A DNA stretch of 64,000 nt from a virus (Duplodnaviria > Caudoviricetes): IMG/VR virus record IMGVR_UViG_3300011678_000001, positions 64,001-128,000 of that record; one strand, given 5' to 3'. The position numbers and the translations under genes are program-made. Below the pieces are notes generated by a model. That model was not told where the DNA came from. It was given only the letters and a program-made list of their open reading frames with translations, and did no database searches. Positions 21,522 to 38,307 of this stretch are shown here, piece after piece (positions within the stretch are counted from its first letter, which is position 1; the number at the start of each line of letters is the position of its first letter).

Positions 21522-21663
21522 TAAATCTCCCGCATTTATCGTGAGATACTATGAGAGAGCGCTTTCTACGCTGTAGTCAGTGCTTTATCCGAGAATCGCT
21601 CAGGCTCGCTAATTACACGGTCTGGGTGGTTCTTGTTTTCCATTTTGTCGAGGACAATTGAAC

Positions 21664-23757
21664 ATGGCAATGACAAACGTGGCTCTTGAAACTGCTTTGA
21701 AAGCAGCTCTTCAACGCCTGGTCACCGCGCTGGCTAACAAGACCGCGCCTGACTCCCTTAAACTCGAAGGCCTGACCCTTGTTCAGGTGACTGAGCAGAT
21801 TCTGGCTGGTAAAGCCGCGACTGCCGGCACTGCCGACAACTCGCTGGCCCTCGGCGGTAAAGACCTCGCCACCATCGAAGCTGAACGCGCTGCTGCGCTG
21901 ACCGCTGCGATCGACGCCCTGCGTACCGAACTGGAAGGTTCTGTTGCTGGTGTGACCAAAGAAAGCATTGGTCTGGGTGATGTCGTTAACTACGGTGTTG
22001 CCACCGAAGAACAAGCCCTGGCTGGCGCTGCTGACAAATACGTCACTGCCTTCCTGGCCGACAAAATCGCTCAGGCCAAGATCGACGAACTGGTCGGTGC
22101 TTCCCCGGAAACACTCAACACCATTCAAGAGATCGCAGCGGCGCTGAACAACGACCCAGACGTCATCAACACGATGATGACTGCGATCGGCACCAAGGAG
22201 ACTCCGGAAGGTGCTCAGGCGAAGGCCGACGCGGCTGAAGCTGCTGCTATCACTGCAGCGGCCACTGACGCTCAGACCAAAGCTGACGCCGCTCAGGCGG
22301 CTGCCATTGCAGCTGCTGCAACTGATGCCACCACCAAAGCGGATGCTGCCCAGCAAGCTGCTATCGAAGCCGCTGCCCTGGACGCCACGTCCAAAGTAGA
22401 CGCTGCTGCCGCAGACCTGCAAGTTGCCATCGACGGCAAACTGGGTAAAGGCGAGCAGGCTGCTGACTCGGCGTTGCTCGGTGGTCAGACTGCTGCACAG
22501 ATCATCTCCGCTGCGCAAGCTGGCGTGGACATGTCCAACGTCGTTGTCAAAGGCAGCAACGTTGACACCAACACCATCACTCAAGGCGAAGGCGAGACTG
22601 CCACTCAGGTTGCCCTCAGCACCCTGATCGCTCAGCTGCAGGCGGGTATTGCTGCTGCTGGTGATAGTGCTGACCTGGAAGCCCTCCAGACCAGCTTCAA
22701 CGCCTTCGTAGCCGCTAAGGCCACCAGCGAAGACGTGATCGCCGGTACTGACGACGTCAAGTACGTCACCTCCCTGTCGGCCAAAGCTGCGATTGACGCC
22801 GCTGTAGCTGAACTGGTTGGTACCGCGCCTGAAGCGCTCGACACCATCAACGAGTTGGCTGCTGCGCTCAACAACGATCCGGACATCATCAACACCCTGA
22901 TGACCCAGATCGGCGAGAAGCAGACCGCTGCTCAGGTTCAGTCGGCCATCGACGCTTCCTTGGTTGCCGTTAACACTGCCATCAATGCTGCTCAGGAAAC
23001 AGCTGACAGCAAACTCGGTGCCACTGCCCAGGCGGCTGACTCCGCGCTGTTGGAAGGTAGCACCAAAGCCCAAGTCGTCGCTGAAGCGGCTGCTGCTGCC
23101 AAGACCGCTGCAGATGCTGCCTACGTTGCCCAAGGCGGTAACATCGGCACCAACACCCTGACCGTCGGTGCTGACGAAGTCGCTCTGGCTACCATCATCA
23201 CTGACCTCCAGGCTGCCATCGCTGATGCTGGTGATGCGACTGCCCTGCAGGCTGTCAGCGACAAGCTGGATGCGTTCATCGCCGCTAAGGCCACCTCGGC
23301 TGAAGTGATCGAAGGCCTGGATGACAGCAAGTACGTTACCGCTGTTGGCGTAAAAGCCAGCGTCGATGGCGCCATTGCTGCTCTGGTTGACGGTGCTCCG
23401 ACTGCACTCGACACCTTGAAGGAACTGGCTGATGCGCTGGCTAACAGCGAAGACGCCGTTGCTGCACTGACCGTCGCCATCGACGGTAAGCTGGGCAAAA
23501 CCGAACAAGCTGCAGACTCCCTGAAGCTTAACGGTAAAACCCAAGCTGAACTGACCTCGGCTGCTGCTGACCTCGACGACGCCACTGGCGCCGCTGGTGC
23601 TGGCAAGTTCGCTGATGCCGGTCAGGTGGCTGTCAAGCTGGCTGCAGTCAACACTGCAACCGCTACCGTTGCAAGCGATCTGGAAGCGCTGGTCATTGAA
23701 CTGACCAATGCCTTCGATACCGCTGCTGCGGACCTGGAAGGTACTCCGGCCGTCTAA
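21664..23757 (+). CDS. Long Ala-rich fibre protein (paralog 6)
   Basis: Three (A/S)PxxL(D/N)TxxE(L/I)AxAL units; 19-aa KADAA repeats; strong codon bias; TATG at 21550; terminator 23769-23801. Confidence 0.8.
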   Translation: MAMTNVALETALKAALQRLVTALANKTAPDSLKLEGLTLVQVTEQILAGKAATAGTADNSLALGGKDLATIEAERAAALTAAIDALRTELEGSVAGVTKESIGLGDVVNYGVATEEQALAGAADKYVTAFLADKIAQAKIDELVGASPETLNTIQEIAAALNNDPDVINTMMTAIGTKETPEGAQAKADAAEAAAITAAATDAQTKADAAQAAAIAAAATDATTKADAAQQAAIEAAALDATSKVDAAAADLQVAIDGKLGKGEQAADSALLGGQTAAQIISAAQAGVDMSNVVVKGSNVDTNTITQGEGETATQVALSTLIAQLQAGIAAAGDSADLEALQTSFNAFVAAKATSEDVIAGTDDVKYVTSLSAKAAIDAAVAELVGTAPEALDTINELAAALNNDPDIINTLMTQIGEKQTAAQVQSAIDASLVAVNTAINAAQETADSKLGATAQAADSALLEGSTKAQVVAEAAAAAKTAADAAYVAQGGNIGTNTLTVGADEVALATIITDLQAAIADAGDATALQAVSDKLDAFIAAKATSAEVIEGLDDSKYVTAVGVKASVDGAIAALVDGAPTALDTLKELADALANSEDAVAALTVAIDGKLGKTEQAADSLKLNGKTQAELTSAAADLDDATGAAGAGKFADAGQVAVKLAAVNTATATVASDLEALVIELTNAFDTAAADLEGTPAV

Positions 23758-23768
23758 CGGCGATTCGG

Positions 23769-23801
23769 CATAGAGGGAGGGCTTCGGCCCTCCCTCTATG
23801 T
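23769..23801. terminator. Bidirectional terminator
   Basis: catagagggagggc-ttcg-gccctccctctatg. Confidence 0.85.
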
Positions 23802-23803
23802 TG

Positions 23804-24364
23804 TCAGTCCAATGTCTCGTCATCAATCGTTCGTACGATGCCTTCATCCGTGACCCGTATGCGTCCTTCATCATCCACCCGGCGCAACCCTGCTGACCAG
23901 AAGATGTGAATCGTTTTACGGCCCACGTAGATGTAGGATTCTTCTTTAGCGAAGATGTCAATGCTGGTGAACTGTGCCAGTGAATCGAACGTCCCGTCCA
24001 CATCAACGTCAAACTCACCATCGACCAAGTTGAACTTCCCGTCAAGGTACGCAATCAAGGCGTCCTTGTCGTTGATGCCGTATGTCTCTTTGGCATCAAT
24101 GGTAAAGGTCGGGTAGTGGCTGTCAATGTTGGCACGGGCGTAGTACATGTCCTGCTGGCCCTTGAACGGCCCACCGGCTTTTGCCTTGACCAAAATGATG
24201 GTGTTGTCACCGTGTTCATCCGTGGCATCCATTGGACGCGGGGTTTCCACCTCCACCGCATTAGGATCAAGCTTCGCCCGGTTGGTTCGATACACCAAGG
24301 CAAAGAGGTTCTCTAGTGCGGTCTTGTCTGGGTCAAACTTGAAGTTATCTGTCTTACATGCCAT
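23804..24364 (-). CDS. Putative virion structural protein
   Basis: FKGQQDMYYARANI...SYIYVG; same family pattern as the 15347 protein. Confidence 0.65.
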   Translation of the reverse strand: MACKTDNFKFDPDKTALENLFALVYRTNRAKLDPNAVEVETPRPMDATDEHGDNTIILVKAKAGGPFKGQQDMYYARANIDSHYPTFTIDAKETYGINDKDALIAYLDGKFNLVDGEFDVDVDGTFDSLAQFTSIDIFAKEESYIYVGRKTIHIFWSAGLRRVDDEGRIRVTDEGIVRTIDDETLD

Positions 24365-24392
24365 AGCGGTCTCGGTTGAAATAGAGCAAGGG

Positions 24393-24758
24393 TCATACTA
24401 TTTCCCCGAGGTAGTAGATGGTGTAGCCGTTATCGTCAGCCACCTCCCGGATAAAGTCTACAAACAGATGCCGGTGACAGAACTTACCCGCTTTACAGTA
24501 ACAGGCCACCGCCAATGGACCAGGTCTTTCTAGGAAGCCCTGAAAGTCCTCAGGAACGGCCCTGAGACGCTCTGTAAGCTTCGTTAAGTAGATCTCCGTA
24601 TATTGGTCGTCTGTGACTTCGCCGCGCTTGTAGGCGTACAGTACGTCTTTATACGGGGCAAAGGGTTCGAAGCCTGATTTGACGGTGATGTCAAACAACT
24701 CAATCCCTTCGGCCTTTGCTTTACGCCATTGAGGAATGGCGATGGTATATAGGTTCAT
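24393..24758 (-). CDS. DUF488-like protein
   Basis: AAGGAGG RBS before MNLYT; DITVKS..FAP..Y...ACYCKAGKFCHRHL. Confidence 0.6.
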   Translation of the reverse strand: MNLYTIAIPQWRKAKAEGIELFDITVKSGFEPFAPYKDVLYAYKRGEVTDDQYTEIYLTKLTERLRAVPEDFQGFLERPGPLAVACYCKAGKFCHRHLFVDFIREVADDNGYTIYYLGEIV

Positions 24759-24812
24759 CCCCACCTCCTTAGGCAGTCTATACACTAGGTCGACTTATTT
24801 CCAAATCACGGC

Positions 24813-25253
24813 AAAACAAAAAAGAAAATAATGTACATCCCCCAGTGATCAAACCCATGATAGAGTTGAATCACTGGAGGCTGCACATTGCGACGGGTTC
24901 AGCGAGGAGTGGCACCTAGACCGTCGAACGTCTTCTCGGGATAGCCGGCCCTTGACGACGTTGTTTCCGTGCTGCGATGCGGAGCAAGAGCATCGACACA
25001 TCATCGTTTACTGGCACGCACTGCTAGGTAGCGGTGGAAGCAGGGCGCCAGAACAAGCAACAACCTTGATTATCACGACGAGTTCATCAAGGGCAACGAA
25101 GAAGACCCAGGAGGCCGAAGCCTCCGTGGGTAGTGGGCGGTAACTACGTCATTGGGGGTGACTACCGCGCCGGCTGCGGAGGACAATCCGCGCTATCTAC
25201 GCAGTTAAGCGCATTCGGTTTCAGGCACCATGTTGTGAAAGAACAGGTCCTAC
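24813..25253 (-). ncRNA. Putative ~440-nt structured non-coding RNA
   Basis: TATG at 25256-25253; consecutive stems with G-U pairs on the minus strand; a cUUCGg hairpin; 25-bp terminal stem plus U-tract; no credible ORF. Confidence 0.65.
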
Positions 25254-25319
25254 ATACTATACTGGTTTTTACTGCTAAAAATTGCAGGAGCAGGTGGGGA
25301 CCGAAATCCCCACGTCTCG

Positions 25320-26828
25320 TCAGATGTCTAGCAGCGCACCCATTGCACGCAGGTTGGCATCGCCATCACGTACCGAGGCAGTCACCCAGGTCTGGTAATG
25401 ACGGGCCAGTACTTCACTAGCCTGTGGAGATACCATGGAGCTGTCGAAGGCGAAGTCATCGCTCAGACCAGCAGACAGCGCACTCTGACCGATGTCAGTC
25501 AACATGTCATGCTCACCGAGGAAGGTCATCAGGCTGTTGAGAATGTCTTTGACTTTCTCTTGGTCTTCACTGCGAACGGCCAGCGACTCGAACACAACAG
25601 GTTGATCCATCGATTCGGTCGAAGCTTTCTTGTCTTCGTCCTCTTCTTCGTCATCACTGCTGTCGGTATCGTTGTCAGTGGTTTCACTCGCATCGGCTGC
25701 ATCGACTTCAGCGGCGTCTACTTCGGCATCGCCGGAGTCATGCGCTGCATCAACCGCGGCAGCATCCGGTACGTCGTTAGCCGCGTCATCGACAGTGCCT
25801 TCGTCAGCTGTTTCACCAGCCTCGTCAGTCACCGCATCCAGATCATCAGCCGCTTCTACAACGTCCGCTTCTGCATCAACCAGAGCAGGTTCGCCACCTT
25901 CGGCTTCAACACCGGCATCATCCGCTACGGCATCAACCGTTGCATCGGTAGCTGCGTCGAGGTCGGTCTCATCCAGGTCGTCAGTGACGCCTTCATCGGT
26001 ACCGGACACTTCGACATCGGCATTGTCATCGGAGGTGATCGCATCAGCCACTTCATGTTGGATACTGGTCACGGTGGTTTCCGCATCCAATACAGCACCC
26101 GAAGCGTTTTCGCTGCGATGACGTTCGATAGCATCGCCCATCGGATCACTGCCGTCAGAACCCACGCTCTCGGCTTCGCTGCGTGCCGCTTCGGCTTGCT
26201 CGATTGCCGATTCGTGAGCCTTGTTCACCAGGGCTTCGATTCGCTCAACGGCGTCGGACATCTCGCCCAGCACTTGGGTTTCTTCCAAGGCTTCCATGGA
26301 GATACCAAGCGCTTCGAGGTTGCCTTCGACCCGCTTAGCCACCTGGATGACCATCGGACGGACCTGATCGACAGACAAGGCTTCCATAGAGAGGATTTGG
26401 CGAACCAGTTCGACGTTTTCACGATACAGGCCAACCACTTCGGCGGTGTACAGGGATTCTTGAGAAGCGGTTTCCGAATCACGGGTGGTGAACGGGACCG
26501 GCTCTTCCGATTCGGCCTTCTCCATCAATGATTGTTCGATGGCTTCGACTTCCGTCAGACGAGGCGTCAGAACGTCCTGCATGATCAGTTCGATCCGTGC
26601 CTGAGGCTCTTCAACGCCTTCGACCACTTGCAAATCGCCTTGGTGATCGGCTTCTTCCAACACGTTCTCAGTGAGCAGTTGGAAAGCAGTGGCCGTGTTG
26701 TCTTCGAGCGACGGATTAGCCAGCATAGCCTGACCGACAGCCATCAGCGATTCCAGACCGGTGCGGTAGTTCTGTGCTTCATGCAACAGGTCTGCAGCGC
26801 TGAGTTGCCCGGTAGATTTATGCGTCAT
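25320..26828 (-). CDS. Acidic internal head protein with multiple prohead-protease sites
   Basis: Many S/A/G-x-E motifs (SLE, SQE, SME x2, ALE); D/E/A-rich low-complexity tract. Confidence 0.7.
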   Translation of the reverse strand: MTHKSTGQLSAADLLHEAQNYRTGLESLMAVGQAMLANPSLEDNTATAFQLLTENVLEEADHQGDLQVVEGVEEPQARIELIMQDVLTPRLTEVEAIEQSLMEKAESEEPVPFTTRDSETASQESLYTAEVVGLYRENVELVRQILSMEALSVDQVRPMVIQVAKRVEGNLEALGISMEALEETQVLGEMSDAVERIEALVNKAHESAIEQAEAARSEAESVGSDGSDPMGDAIERHRSENASGAVLDAETTVTSIQHEVADAITSDDNADVEVSGTDEGVTDDLDETDLDAATDATVDAVADDAGVEAEGGEPALVDAEADVVEAADDLDAVTDEAGETADEGTVDDAANDVPDAAAVDAAHDSGDAEVDAAEVDAADASETTDNDTDSSDDEEEDEDKKASTESMDQPVVFESLAVRSEDQEKVKDILNSLMTFLGEHDMLTDIGQSALSAGLSDDFAFDSSMVSPQASEVLARHYQTWVTASVRDGDANLRAMGALLDI

Positions 26829-26877: not shown

Positions 26878-28935
26878 ATGTACGCCAGTTTCTCGCGCAT
26901 TCTGGGATTGGTCTCTGCCAAAGAGACTGGTTCTCACATTATACTGAACGGAATTCCCGGTCTGCGTTTCTCCAGAGACATCTATAACTTCTGGAAAACA
27001 AGCAAGATCAGCAATAACCTGTTCACAGCAGTTTCGAAAAGCTCGGTGAAATTCCCCAAGTTTTACGCCATCGAGGTGCTCTACATTATCGAGCAACTCA
27101 TCGAATCGCGCAGGACGTACGTCGGTCGACGCATCCTGATCAAAGCTGCTGAGGAATTGAGACGTTCCACTTGGCTGCGTAATATAGGCGTGACCGGCTT
27201 CACTCCTCGCCTCAATTACAAAGCATTGAACGATCTCAATGTCACACCATTTCCCCATCAACTTAAATTTTTACAGGTATATGATCGGACAACGTTCGAG
27301 TATTCCCTGCAAGGCATGCTGATGGACGTCGCGGCCGGTGGTGGTAAGACCATCACCAACTATGCCCTCGGTCATTGTCTGGGTGCCGATACCAACGTCA
27401 TGGTCGTGCCGAAGAACGCGGTGCTTGATGTCTGGGTCAAGACGGTCAACATGCTGTTCAAGCAGACGCCAACCTACTGGCACAGCTTAAGTGGCACCGA
27501 TCCCGTATTAGGCCAGAAATACTACATCGTGCACTTTGACTACCTGGAGAAATTCCTGACTTTTGTCAAGGCGAACCAGGGCAGCTTCGGTCAAGTCTTC
27601 ATGGCCATTGACGAATCGCACAACTTCAACGAACAGTCAGCTCGGACGAACTACCTGATCGACCTGGCCAGCAGCCTGAATGCCCGTGACGTGGTCCATG
27701 CTTCCGGTACCCCGTTCAAGGCGATGGGATCTGAGGCGATCACTCTGCTGAAGACCATCTGCCGGGACTTCACACCGGATGCTGAAGTGGCGTTCCGTAA
27801 GATCTTCGGTAAAGAAGCCAAGCGCGCCTTGGAGATTCTGGCCAACCGGATCGGGATCGTCTCCTTTAAGGTCCTCAAACAAGACATCGAAACCCCCGGC
27901 GTGGATTACCACGAAGAAAAGGTTACGATGAAGAACGGCAACGAGTACACCCTGCCTAACGTCCGTGAGAAGATGACCAAGTTCATCGAAGAGCGCCTGG
28001 AGTTCTACCGCAAAGGCATGAAGGAGTACGAAGCCCTCTATGCCCAGTGCATGGAGTTGCACGGTGCAGCAATCGGCAGTAACAATGCGGCCAAGGCTGA
28101 GTTTGCCGAGTACAAGAAGTACATCGCCATCATCCGCAAGGGGTACGATCCGGTCACCATGAAGGACCTGGTGATGTTCTGCAACCGGTACGAACTGAAG
28201 AAGATCGTTCCAAGTTTGCCAGACCGCCTGCGTAAGCCGTTCCTGAACGTACGAGCCATCATCAAGTACGTAGACCTTAAGGTCATGGGTGAAGCCCTGT
28301 CCCAGGTGCTGGGTAGGATGCGCATCCAGTGCCATTTGGACATGCTGCCGCACATGCCGCTTGACACCATCATTGACAACGCCACCAGCAAGACGGTGAT
28401 CTTTACCAGCTACGTGGAAGTGGTCAAGGAATTGGACAAACTACTGACCGATGCCGGTTACAAGCCGCTACTGGTCTACGGGGAAACCAACAAGGACCTG
28501 ACCAACATCGTTAAGAAGTTCGATCAGGACCCGGATGCCAACCCCTTGGTGGCCACCTTCAAGAGCTTGTCGACAGCGGTGCCCTTGACCATGGCTAACA
28601 CCGAAATCTTCACCAATGCCCCGTTCCGTGACTACGAGCGGACGCAGACCATTGCCCGTGTGGACCGCATTGGTCAGAAGCACCGTTGCCATGTCTGGGA
28701 AATCTTCTTGGACACCGGGATGGAAGGCAATATCTCCACCCGCTCTAAGGACATCATGGCGTGGAGCAAGGCTCAGGTCGAGGCGATATTAGGGGTGCAA
28801 GCCCCAGACGATCTGGAAGCCTCGCTGGAGAGCATGATCGAAAACCCCAACGCGACCTTGGCCGATGCCGAACAGTACATGAGCAGTCTCAAGCAGATGC
28901 TGCCGATCGACGTCGTCGAAGAGGCGGTTGTTTAA
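26878..28935 (+). CDS. SF2 (SNF2/DEXH-like) helicase
   Basis: DVAAGGGKT, IDESH, ASGTP, QTIARVDRIGQ. Confidence 0.85.
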   Translation: MYASFSRILGLVSAKETGSHIILNGIPGLRFSRDIYNFWKTSKISNNLFTAVSKSSVKFPKFYAIEVLYIIEQLIESRRTYVGRRILIKAAEELRRSTWLRNIGVTGFTPRLNYKALNDLNVTPFPHQLKFLQVYDRTTFEYSLQGMLMDVAAGGGKTITNYALGHCLGADTNVMVVPKNAVLDVWVKTVNMLFKQTPTYWHSLSGTDPVLGQKYYIVHFDYLEKFLTFVKANQGSFGQVFMAIDESHNFNEQSARTNYLIDLASSLNARDVVHASGTPFKAMGSEAITLLKTICRDFTPDAEVAFRKIFGKEAKRALEILANRIGIVSFKVLKQDIETPGVDYHEEKVTMKNGNEYTLPNVREKMTKFIEERLEFYRKGMKEYEALYAQCMELHGAAIGSNNAAKAEFAEYKKYIAIIRKGYDPVTMKDLVMFCNRYELKKIVPSLPDRLRKPFLNVRAIIKYVDLKVMGEALSQVLGRMRIQCHLDMLPHMPLDTIIDNATSKTVIFTSYVEVVKELDKLLTDAGYKPLLVYGETNKDLTNIVKKFDQDPDANPLVATFKSLSTAVPLTMANTEIFTNAPFRDYERTQTIARVDRIGQKHRCHVWEIFLDTGMEGNISTRSKDIMAWSKAQVEAILGVQAPDDLEASLESMIENPNATLADAEQYMSSLKQMLPIDVVEEAVV

Positions 28936-37415: not shown

Positions 37416-38278
37416 AAACAAAAAAAATAAAGGAAGAAAGTCTTGGGGAAGCTTGGATGTCCACAATTGCCGGAACGCTCAGGTTCCACTCAGGGGCGAC
37501 CTGAGCTGTGTACAAGTGCCATCTTCCCCGTAACCTTTGTTGCCATGCGCCTACGGTTTGGTAGGACTTAGATGACCTGTGGTCATCAGATAACCGAACT
37601 CAATCGGTGCGAGAGATTAGGTGGTAACCCAATGTTGTTACCCGACCTATGAAATGCTGACGGAGCCCACAGCCACCGTGCAATTCGACAGATCGAGCCG
37701 CTTTAAGTACCTGCCCGCTTACCTGTTCGCTTGGAGCTTCACCGCGATCAATTCCAATGTACAGCGATTCTCCGTTGTGACGTGGTAACGTCACCTTTGA
37801 CAGCACAATGGCCGGGATGTCGAGAAAGGCTGGATTGTTTGATGCACTAAAGTGTTGCTCGCTGGAGAACCAACCGGCTTGTGTCTTGCCGTGATGCCCC
37901 ATCAAGAGTCCGAGTAAGAAGACCAATACCAAAGCTGGTCCGCGTGTGACGATAATGTTCTCCGTTTCATGATAGGTTTAGAGGGCAGGTTAGACGCGCC
38001 CTGTTGCCGTCTCAGTTAAGTTCATAGTCACGTTCGGTCGCCACCGTACCATGCGCCTTATGCATGAGGCGGGACCGACTCCCGATTAAGTTCGTGCGAC
38101 GCTTACTGTGCCTGACCTCACGGTGCCGTGCAGGACGAAGGCGATAGAAGGGAGTCCAGTGGACCACCAACACCTTCTTTCTAATCCAGCACGACTGATG
38201 CCATGAGGTCGAGCGCAGGGCTTCGCTAAGCCAGCAAAAGTGCATGCAATTCCTTAGCCAATGTCACAGTGCTACTAC
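37416..38278 (-). ncRNA. Putative ~860-nt structured non-coding RNA
   Basis: TATG at 38281-38278; many hairpins; GGGGAAG/CUUCCCC-closed 3' domain followed by a U-tract; only weak ORFs. Confidence 0.55.
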
Positions 38279-38307
38279 ATAGATATAGCACTGATCGTAA
38301 AAACAAA

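Follow-up and report, generated by a model that had tools for sequence, protein, structure and literature searches.

A conserved, structured RNA of about 440 nucleotides in an intergenic gap of phiKZ-like jumbo phages

We wondered what a giant phage might keep in a long stretch of DNA that lies between two genes of the same strand and carries no annotated gene itself. The DNA analyzed here (the window, 64,000 nucleotides) was taken from a virus record of 269,790 bp (IMG/VR record IMGVR_UViG_3300011678_000001, a 269.8-kb genome), of which it covers bases 64001-128000, and the stretch in question is a gap of 534 bp that separates two minus-strand genes (25320-26828 and 24393-24758; positions are those of the window unless indicated otherwise). 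An initial annotation, made from the letters of the window and its open reading frames, had proposed that the minus strand of this gap encodes a multi-domain RNA of about 440 nt that is itself under selection. We followed up this proposal by computational analysis.

Judged by its gene content, the genome is that of a phiKZ-like jumbo phage. The best matches of the divergent SNF2 helicase at 26878-28935 come from 205 phiKZ-like jumbo phages, the closest being the helicase of Pseudomonas phage pPa_SNUABM_DT01 (DT01; 77% amino acid identity), a phage that infects Pseudomonas aeruginosa and represents the closest cultured relative. An RNA polymerase beta-like subunit is encoded in the same genome (record positions 196442-196801), and kinship to the phiKZ-like phages suggests that the clade is probably nucleus-forming. 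Upstream of the gap, the minus-strand gene at 25320-26828 encodes a very acidic protein of 502 amino acids with a long central region rich in Asp/Glu. Downstream of it lies a gene for a DUF488-N3a protein (24393-24758, minus strand, start at 24758), which is followed by a gene of the DUF7941 virion-structural type, the pair spanning 23804-24758 on the minus strand.

The minus strand of 24813-25256 folds with a minimum free energy of -171.4 kcal/mol (z -6.5), compared to a mean of -138.5 kcal/mol for shuffled sequences, and none of 100 shuffles folded equally well. The plus strand reached -158.3 kcal/mol (z -3.4), so the strand asymmetry that the initial annotation had read from G-U pairs was borne out. 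Open reading frames do not account for this stretch: stop-to-stop frames on both strands vary in position, frame and length among the homologs described below and none is conserved. This includes the frames 24952-25143 and 25133-25420, whose conservation would have spoken for proteins and which keep neither a common frame nor a common length. The Rfam 15 covariance models, which cover group I and II introns, RNase P, tmRNA, 6S, SRP, GOLLD, ROOL, OLE, HEARO, raiA and SSU rRNA among other families, gave no match at the gathering score in the whole window. When 24700-25400 was searched with E values up to 10, five chance-level matches of 11-16 bits to unrelated small families were obtained. ARAGORN found no tRNA or tmRNA gene in the window, and in the published literature we found no description of the RNA. 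It is a family outside all catalogued ones, within the known kind of the large structured phage RNA. Compensatory base pairs beyond the controls in the homologs, together with the lack of a conserved frame, identify it as a structured non-coding RNA, and we are highly confident that the window from 25253 to ~24815 on the minus strand is a stand-alone gene for such an RNA of ~440 nt.

Ten further copies of the RNA were found, giving a total of eleven members, some of which are nearly identical. DT01 displays an identical layout of helicase, acidic protein, a gap of 513 bp and DUF488, and its gap, in which the predicted RNA spans record positions ~262326-262760, can be aligned to the window and has a folding z of -6.9. 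Two homologs were reached in IMG/VR via the acidic protein, two in metagenome contigs via an invariant 5' block and five in viral contigs via motifs of invariant loops taken in pairs. Of these five, one came from scanning for a pair of motifs at the 3' side, which also gave seven chance matches in coding DNA. Seven of the ten further copies are located in viral genome records of 254-277 kb and the other three on shorter contigs. Seven whole genome records were searched with the covariance model, or with the RNA sequence itself in the case of its own genome, and each of them contains a single copy. A homolog of the acidic protein immediately precedes the RNA in every member, and this is the sole neighbour common to all of them. 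The gene downstream encodes DUF488 except in one member (L054), which has a different gene, and it lies on the same strand in at least nine members.

The acidic protein is confined to the clade of phages that carry the RNA, and the two genes may form a module. No Pfam, PHROG or Atlas relative of the protein was found, nor a recognisable RNA-binding domain, nor a similarity to the FLC9 protein that adjoins the helicase. Outside the clade, the model of the central domain of the RNA (R1, see below) gave weak and unconvincing matches only when the whole genomes of ten phiKZ-like phages were scanned (FLC9, LucasX, phiKZ, Eowyn, RP12, Noxifer, Phabio, Special G, SA002 and 201phi2-1). The match in Special G, located inside an annotated CDS, and that in RP12 aligned poorly to the model and were rejected, as were six chance matches in bacterial genomes that were scanned for the invariant loop and that were confined to a 21-mer. 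The RNA is kept, with numerous compensating changes of its base pairs, by a small group of giant phages, a cultured P. aeruginosa phage among them.

The architecture conserved in all members consists of eleven hairpins in series, two of which share a small closed central domain. In 5' to 3' order these are Ha, Hb, Hc, Hd, He, the central domain with Hf and Hg, Hh, Hi, Hj and Hk, all of them on the minus strand. The stems vary in sequence yet remain paired, while several large pyrimidine-rich loops are invariant; altogether, the sequence is frozen in six to eight large apical loops. As the MAFFT alignment was unreliable for the variable hairpins Hc, Hd and Hi, folds of the individual sequences were used for these instead.

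The 5'-terminal hairpin Ha (25222-25252) carries a conserved pyrimidine-rich loop of ~14 nt whose motif is present in all members, while its closing stem varies with pairing retained. Hb (25198-25213), with 5 bp and a 6-nt loop, forms in all members, but its stem is nearly invariant and therefore yields no evidence from covariation. Hc (25173-25193) is the variable hairpin: each sub-clade forms a stem of 6-9 bp here despite unrelated sequences. Hd (25135-25171) has covarying stems in all members and a C5A loop; CCCCCA is found in eight of the ten aligned members and lost in two. He (25105-25131) is a hairpin of 10-11 bp with a loop of the UUCG type (cUUCGg in the window), the stem of which differs in sequence by sub-clade and is constant in pairing. 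The segment from Hc to He folds into exactly three hairpins in all ten members analyzed, with z between -4.1 and -7.4.

The central domain (25004-25099) is closed by a helix of 5 bp (25095-25099 with 25004-25008) around Hf (25064-25092), which exposes an invariant 15-nt loop, and Hg (25011-25051) with a conserved CGCUACC loop. When ten members were aligned with the model, 98.1% of the cells were paired and 10 of 21 pairs had changed on both sides. None of 500 shuffles matched these values, and pairing in slid controls was 20-60%.

The 3' domain is 93% paired, with 9 of 23 pairs doubly changed and a covariation score reached by none of 500 shuffles. Hh (24976-25002) contains a conserved GCUCC motif and its outer pairs covary. 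Hi (24927-24962), a hairpin that the initial annotation had missed, forms in every member with differing stems and presents CCGGC in its apical loop, a motif found in nine of ten aligned members. The segment of Hh and Hi is thermodynamically weak (z near 0 to -1.4 in nine of ten members), and these two hairpins are less certain than the other helices. Hj (24891-24926) is built of an outer stem, a short inner stem and a loop of 8-9 nt that ends in CUCCU; four of four outer pairs have changed on both sides and the loop is invariant bar one or two bases. Hk (24830-24889) is the terminal hairpin of 25 bp directly before a U-tract. Its lower part of 15 bp, which contains a G.A mismatch and a G.U pair, hardly varies and its apical part is variable; 98.7% of cells are paired, and five compensatory pairs lie at its base and top.

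These data support the core of the initial annotation and require a correction of the topology alone. The local stems that it had listed (Ha, Hd, He, Hf, Hg, Hh, Hj and Hk with the U-tract) are all present where it had placed them and were recovered on folding. Its argument that selection acts on a minus-strand RNA of ~440 nt and not on DNA palindromes or the plus-strand ORFs is upheld by the compensatory changes in ten homologs, and further by the better-folding RNA strand, the conserved promoter core with the terminator, and the lack of a conserved ORF on either strand. The topology changes at two sites. A long-range helix (25169-25175 with 24943-24949) had been thought to enclose five of the stems. 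Its complementarity is real in the window (-17.7 kcal/mol, equalled by 3% of shuffled loops), but the helix is absent or no better than shuffled in seven of the ten members tested and is confined to the sub-clade of the window; its 3' arm (24943-24949) is the conserved apical loop of Hi, and the helix lies outside the conserved structure. A possible H-type pseudoknot had been suggested near the 5' end. The complementary words are restricted to the window and the two relatives nearest to it, and the conserved fold at this site is that of the consecutive hairpins Hb and Hc.

How might such an RNA be produced? Late promoters of phiKZ, which are read by its non-virion RNA polymerase, are centred on TATG. 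The DNA directly upstream of Ha contains the core GTATAG overlapping TATG (25253-25262, minus strand), in which 9 of 10 positions show little or no variation among the homologs while no conservation is seen further upstream. In this genome, the density of TATAG and TATG is approximately threefold higher in intergenic DNA than in ORFs, and these motifs probably form the core of the promoters that the phage RNA polymerase recognises, giving rise to transcripts that start with a 5' hairpin. The likeness to the phiKZ late promoters points to transcription by the phage polymerase from near 25253, and the G at this position is the predicted first base of the RNA. At the other end, Hk and the U-rich tract that follows directly (24809-24829), in which the RNA is predicted to end, form an intrinsic (Rho-independent) terminator. 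A U-rich tail 3' of Hk is present in all members. A simple terminator scanner missed Hk, whose loop and stem lengths exceed the limits of the scanner.

We also asked what the RNA might do. Because the stems evolve freely while the loops stay frozen, we regard the loops and the lower stem of Hk as the likely working parts, and we see roughly an even chance that the locus is a real RNA gene whose product acts in trans through its conserved loops. In such a scheme, the phage's own RNA polymerase would transcribe the RNA from the TATG/TATAG-type promoter, presumably alongside middle or late genes, and a stable transcript of ~440 nt ending at Hk and the U-tract would result. Its working surfaces would be the frozen, pyrimidine-rich and G-poor loops together with the invariant lower stem of Hk with its G.A mismatch. 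These surfaces would most likely hold one or more proteins, and we tentatively favour a scaffold or decoy for proteins as the mode of action. A more specific version, in which a new class of large RNA restricted to one phiKZ-like clade assembles with proteins of the phage or the host into a dedicated ribonucleoprotein, is conceivable but somewhat doubtful. It might do so as a module with the adjacent acidic protein or act as a decoy that captures an RNA-binding or defence factor of the host. If it proved correct, the RNA would have a role in infection unlike that of any known phage RNA.

The main alternative is that the same surfaces pair with RNA rich in purines, for example with Shine-Dalgarno-like sequences. 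Staphylococcus aureus RNAIII is an RNA of ~500 nt that is organised as a series of hairpins and uses C-rich apical loops to pair with Shine-Dalgarno regions. The RNA described here resembles RNAIII in size, in its layout of serial hairpins and in C-rich apical loops, and it might by analogy block or tune the translation of host or phage mRNAs. CUCCU, GCUCC, CGCUACC and C5A are candidate loops for such a function, pyrimidines make up 61% of the unpaired positions and G 14%, and the loop of Hj is complementary to AGGAGU, which is among the commonest hexamers just upstream of the start codons in this phage. However, the RNA is phage-encoded, has no embedded ORF and bears no sequence relation to RNAIII. 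The phage genome contains no complement of the long invariant loops and no extended complementarity anywhere, and no target was found in it. The C5A loop is missing from two of ten members. Anti-Shine-Dalgarno-like words occur in several loops, but their number is not clearly above chance: CUCC is present in two loops, versus about one expected in ~160 unpaired bases by a rough estimate from loop composition. We consider action by pairing with purine-rich RNA, including regulation in the manner of RNAIII, to be rather unlikely.

Among the RNAs that hold proteins in trans, CsrB/RsmZ, CrcZ and 6S RNA share the proposed mode of the scaffold or decoy: they are stable and abundant, and CsrB/RsmZ have several hairpins. 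Such sponges repeat one motif (GGA or A-rich) in many loops, whereas the conserved loops of the phage RNA all differ from each other and share no repeated motif, which argues against a sponge for a protein that recognises a single motif. Neither the repeated loop motif of the CsrB/RsmZ/CrcZ type nor an Rfam match to these families was found. As for possible partner genes, the genome encodes neither a reverse transcriptase nor Ro60/TROVE. The pRNA of phi29 is a structural RNA that is likewise encoded by a phage and has a promoter of its own, and it works inside a protein machine. It is ~170 nt long and multimerises via two complementary loops, whereas the ~440-nt RNA has no conserved pair of complementary loops, only a 4-nt palindrome in one loop, that of Hi, and no Rfam match. 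GOLLD and ROOL, RNAs of phages and prophages, are also phage-encoded, several hundred nucleotides long, highly structured, strongly covarying and stand-alone, and their biochemical function is unknown as well. In contrast to these heavily branched and pseudoknotted RNAs, the RNA of the window has its hairpins lined up in a row, with a single small closed domain; it is smaller, has no tRNA genes nearby and gave no match to the covariance models of either family. In phiKZ and 201phi2-1, ONT-cappable-seq revealed small RNAs of <250 nt that mostly derive from 5' UTRs, one of which is conserved across genera (PMC11512511). Like the ~440-nt RNA, these are non-coding RNAs of phiKZ-like jumbo phages, but they are shorter, and the model of its central domain gave no convincing match in either phage.

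Could the RNA act in cis instead, as a riboswitch or attenuator that governs the operon of DUF488 and the virion protein through its terminator hairpin? The DUF488 gene does follow directly on the same strand in at least nine members, and a terminator at the RNA end could serve as an attenuator. Yet a second core of the TATAG type (24778-24783, minus strand) is located between the terminator and the start of DUF488, and the homologs carry a TATAG, TATAA or CTATG motif at the matching position. At the other boundary, a hairpin that immediately follows the stop codon ending the 502-aa gene (25293-25312, minus strand, read from the sequence) separates this gene from the RNA gene and has an equivalent in members L002, L003 and L053. 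Since the upstream gene is closed off by a hairpin and DUF488 has a promoter core of its own, the RNA appears to be an independent unit and not a leader. Moreover, the terminator stem of 25 bp hardly varies, a conserved antiterminator pairing was not found, the downstream gene is a different one in L054, and it is the upstream gene alone that all members keep as a neighbour. A leader function is therefore improbable.

A different idea arose from the comparison with ribosomal RNA, namely that the RNA derives from or mimics the central domain of 16S rRNA (~790-890) and serves as a decoy for a ribosome-binding factor. The family profile scored E. coli 16S rRNA above each of 500 dinucleotide shuffles, its positions 247-325 align to 16S positions 809-889 including an exact 10-mer, and DT01 matches 16S 811-839 at 22 of 28 bases. 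The score amounts to just 4.8 bits, however, in a comparison that was picked after the motif had been seen. The helices do not correspond, as a hairpin loop of the RNA aligns to a stem strand of 16S. Local alignments did not exceed those of shuffles in five of six members, the covariance model of the central domain found no match in 16S rRNA and the Rfam SSU model found none in the RNA. We treat this likeness (first of 501 sequences at 4.8 bits, and no correspondence of helices) as chance and regard such an origin or mimicry as very unlikely.

Introns occur in phiKZ-like phages (PMC11512511, PMC13282480), and size and multi-helix fold of the RNA are within the range of group I introns. It might accordingly be a ribozyme or the remnant of a self-splicing intron or another mobile RNA element. 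Against this, no Rfam match was found even with E up to 10, and the RNA is intergenic with its own promoter and terminator, lacks flanking exons and occupies the identical genomic place in all members. There is no adjoining gene for a homing endonuclease, and a search of the whole genome found no reverse transcriptase; a ribozyme or mobile element is highly improbable. Hardly any more credible is an element that acts as DNA (a replication origin, a packaging site or palindromes bound by proteins) or a pair of small protein genes, for which the long gene-free gap near the helicase gene and ORFs of 51-95 amino acids could be quoted, given that the two strands fold unequally well and G.U pairs are confined to one of them, that compensatory changes preserve RNA pairs including G.U, that a promoter core and terminator are present, that each genome has a single copy and that the ORFs vary in frame and length among the homologs.

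Large conserved non-coding RNAs are rare and mostly of unknown role, which makes each new family a candidate for new RNA biochemistry. PhiKZ-like jumbo phages serve as models for phage-encoded transcription, compartmentalised infection and the evasion of defence, and the annotation of those that carry the RNA misses at least one conserved gene. As the cultured P. aeruginosa phage pPa_SNUABM_DT01 carries the RNA, the family is directly testable with regard to expression, partners, localisation and loss of function; antisense oligomers have been used for knock-down in phiKZ (PMC12571901).

Copies of the RNA were also seen in wastewater. A library labelled RNA-Seq, which probably consists of DNA, contains a contig of 396 nt with a depth of ~15 that represents a copy similar to that of L053; neither expression nor ends can be read from contigs. 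A second wastewater library with the same label, again probably DNA, contains a contig of 206 nt that matches 24905-25109 with 19 differences. More diverse members of the RNA family exist in wastewater.

The window contains a second candidate for a non-coding RNA at 37420-38293 on the minus strand (~850 nt), which folds with a z of -5.7 versus -2.9 for the plus strand. It starts beside TATAT-C-TATGTAG (~38270-38285), resembling the promoter of the ~440-nt RNA, and ends in a hairpin followed by U8 (~37420-37431). Only a stretch of 46 nt matches DT01. Elsewhere in the genome, several intergenic copies of TATAG or TATG directly precede a stable hairpin. Finally, two very long ORFs overlap almost fully in a stretch of 59% G+C, 21613-24054 on the minus strand (813 aa) and 21658-23757 on the plus strand (699 aa). 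Neither has a Pfam family above the cut-off, and just one of the two can be a real gene.
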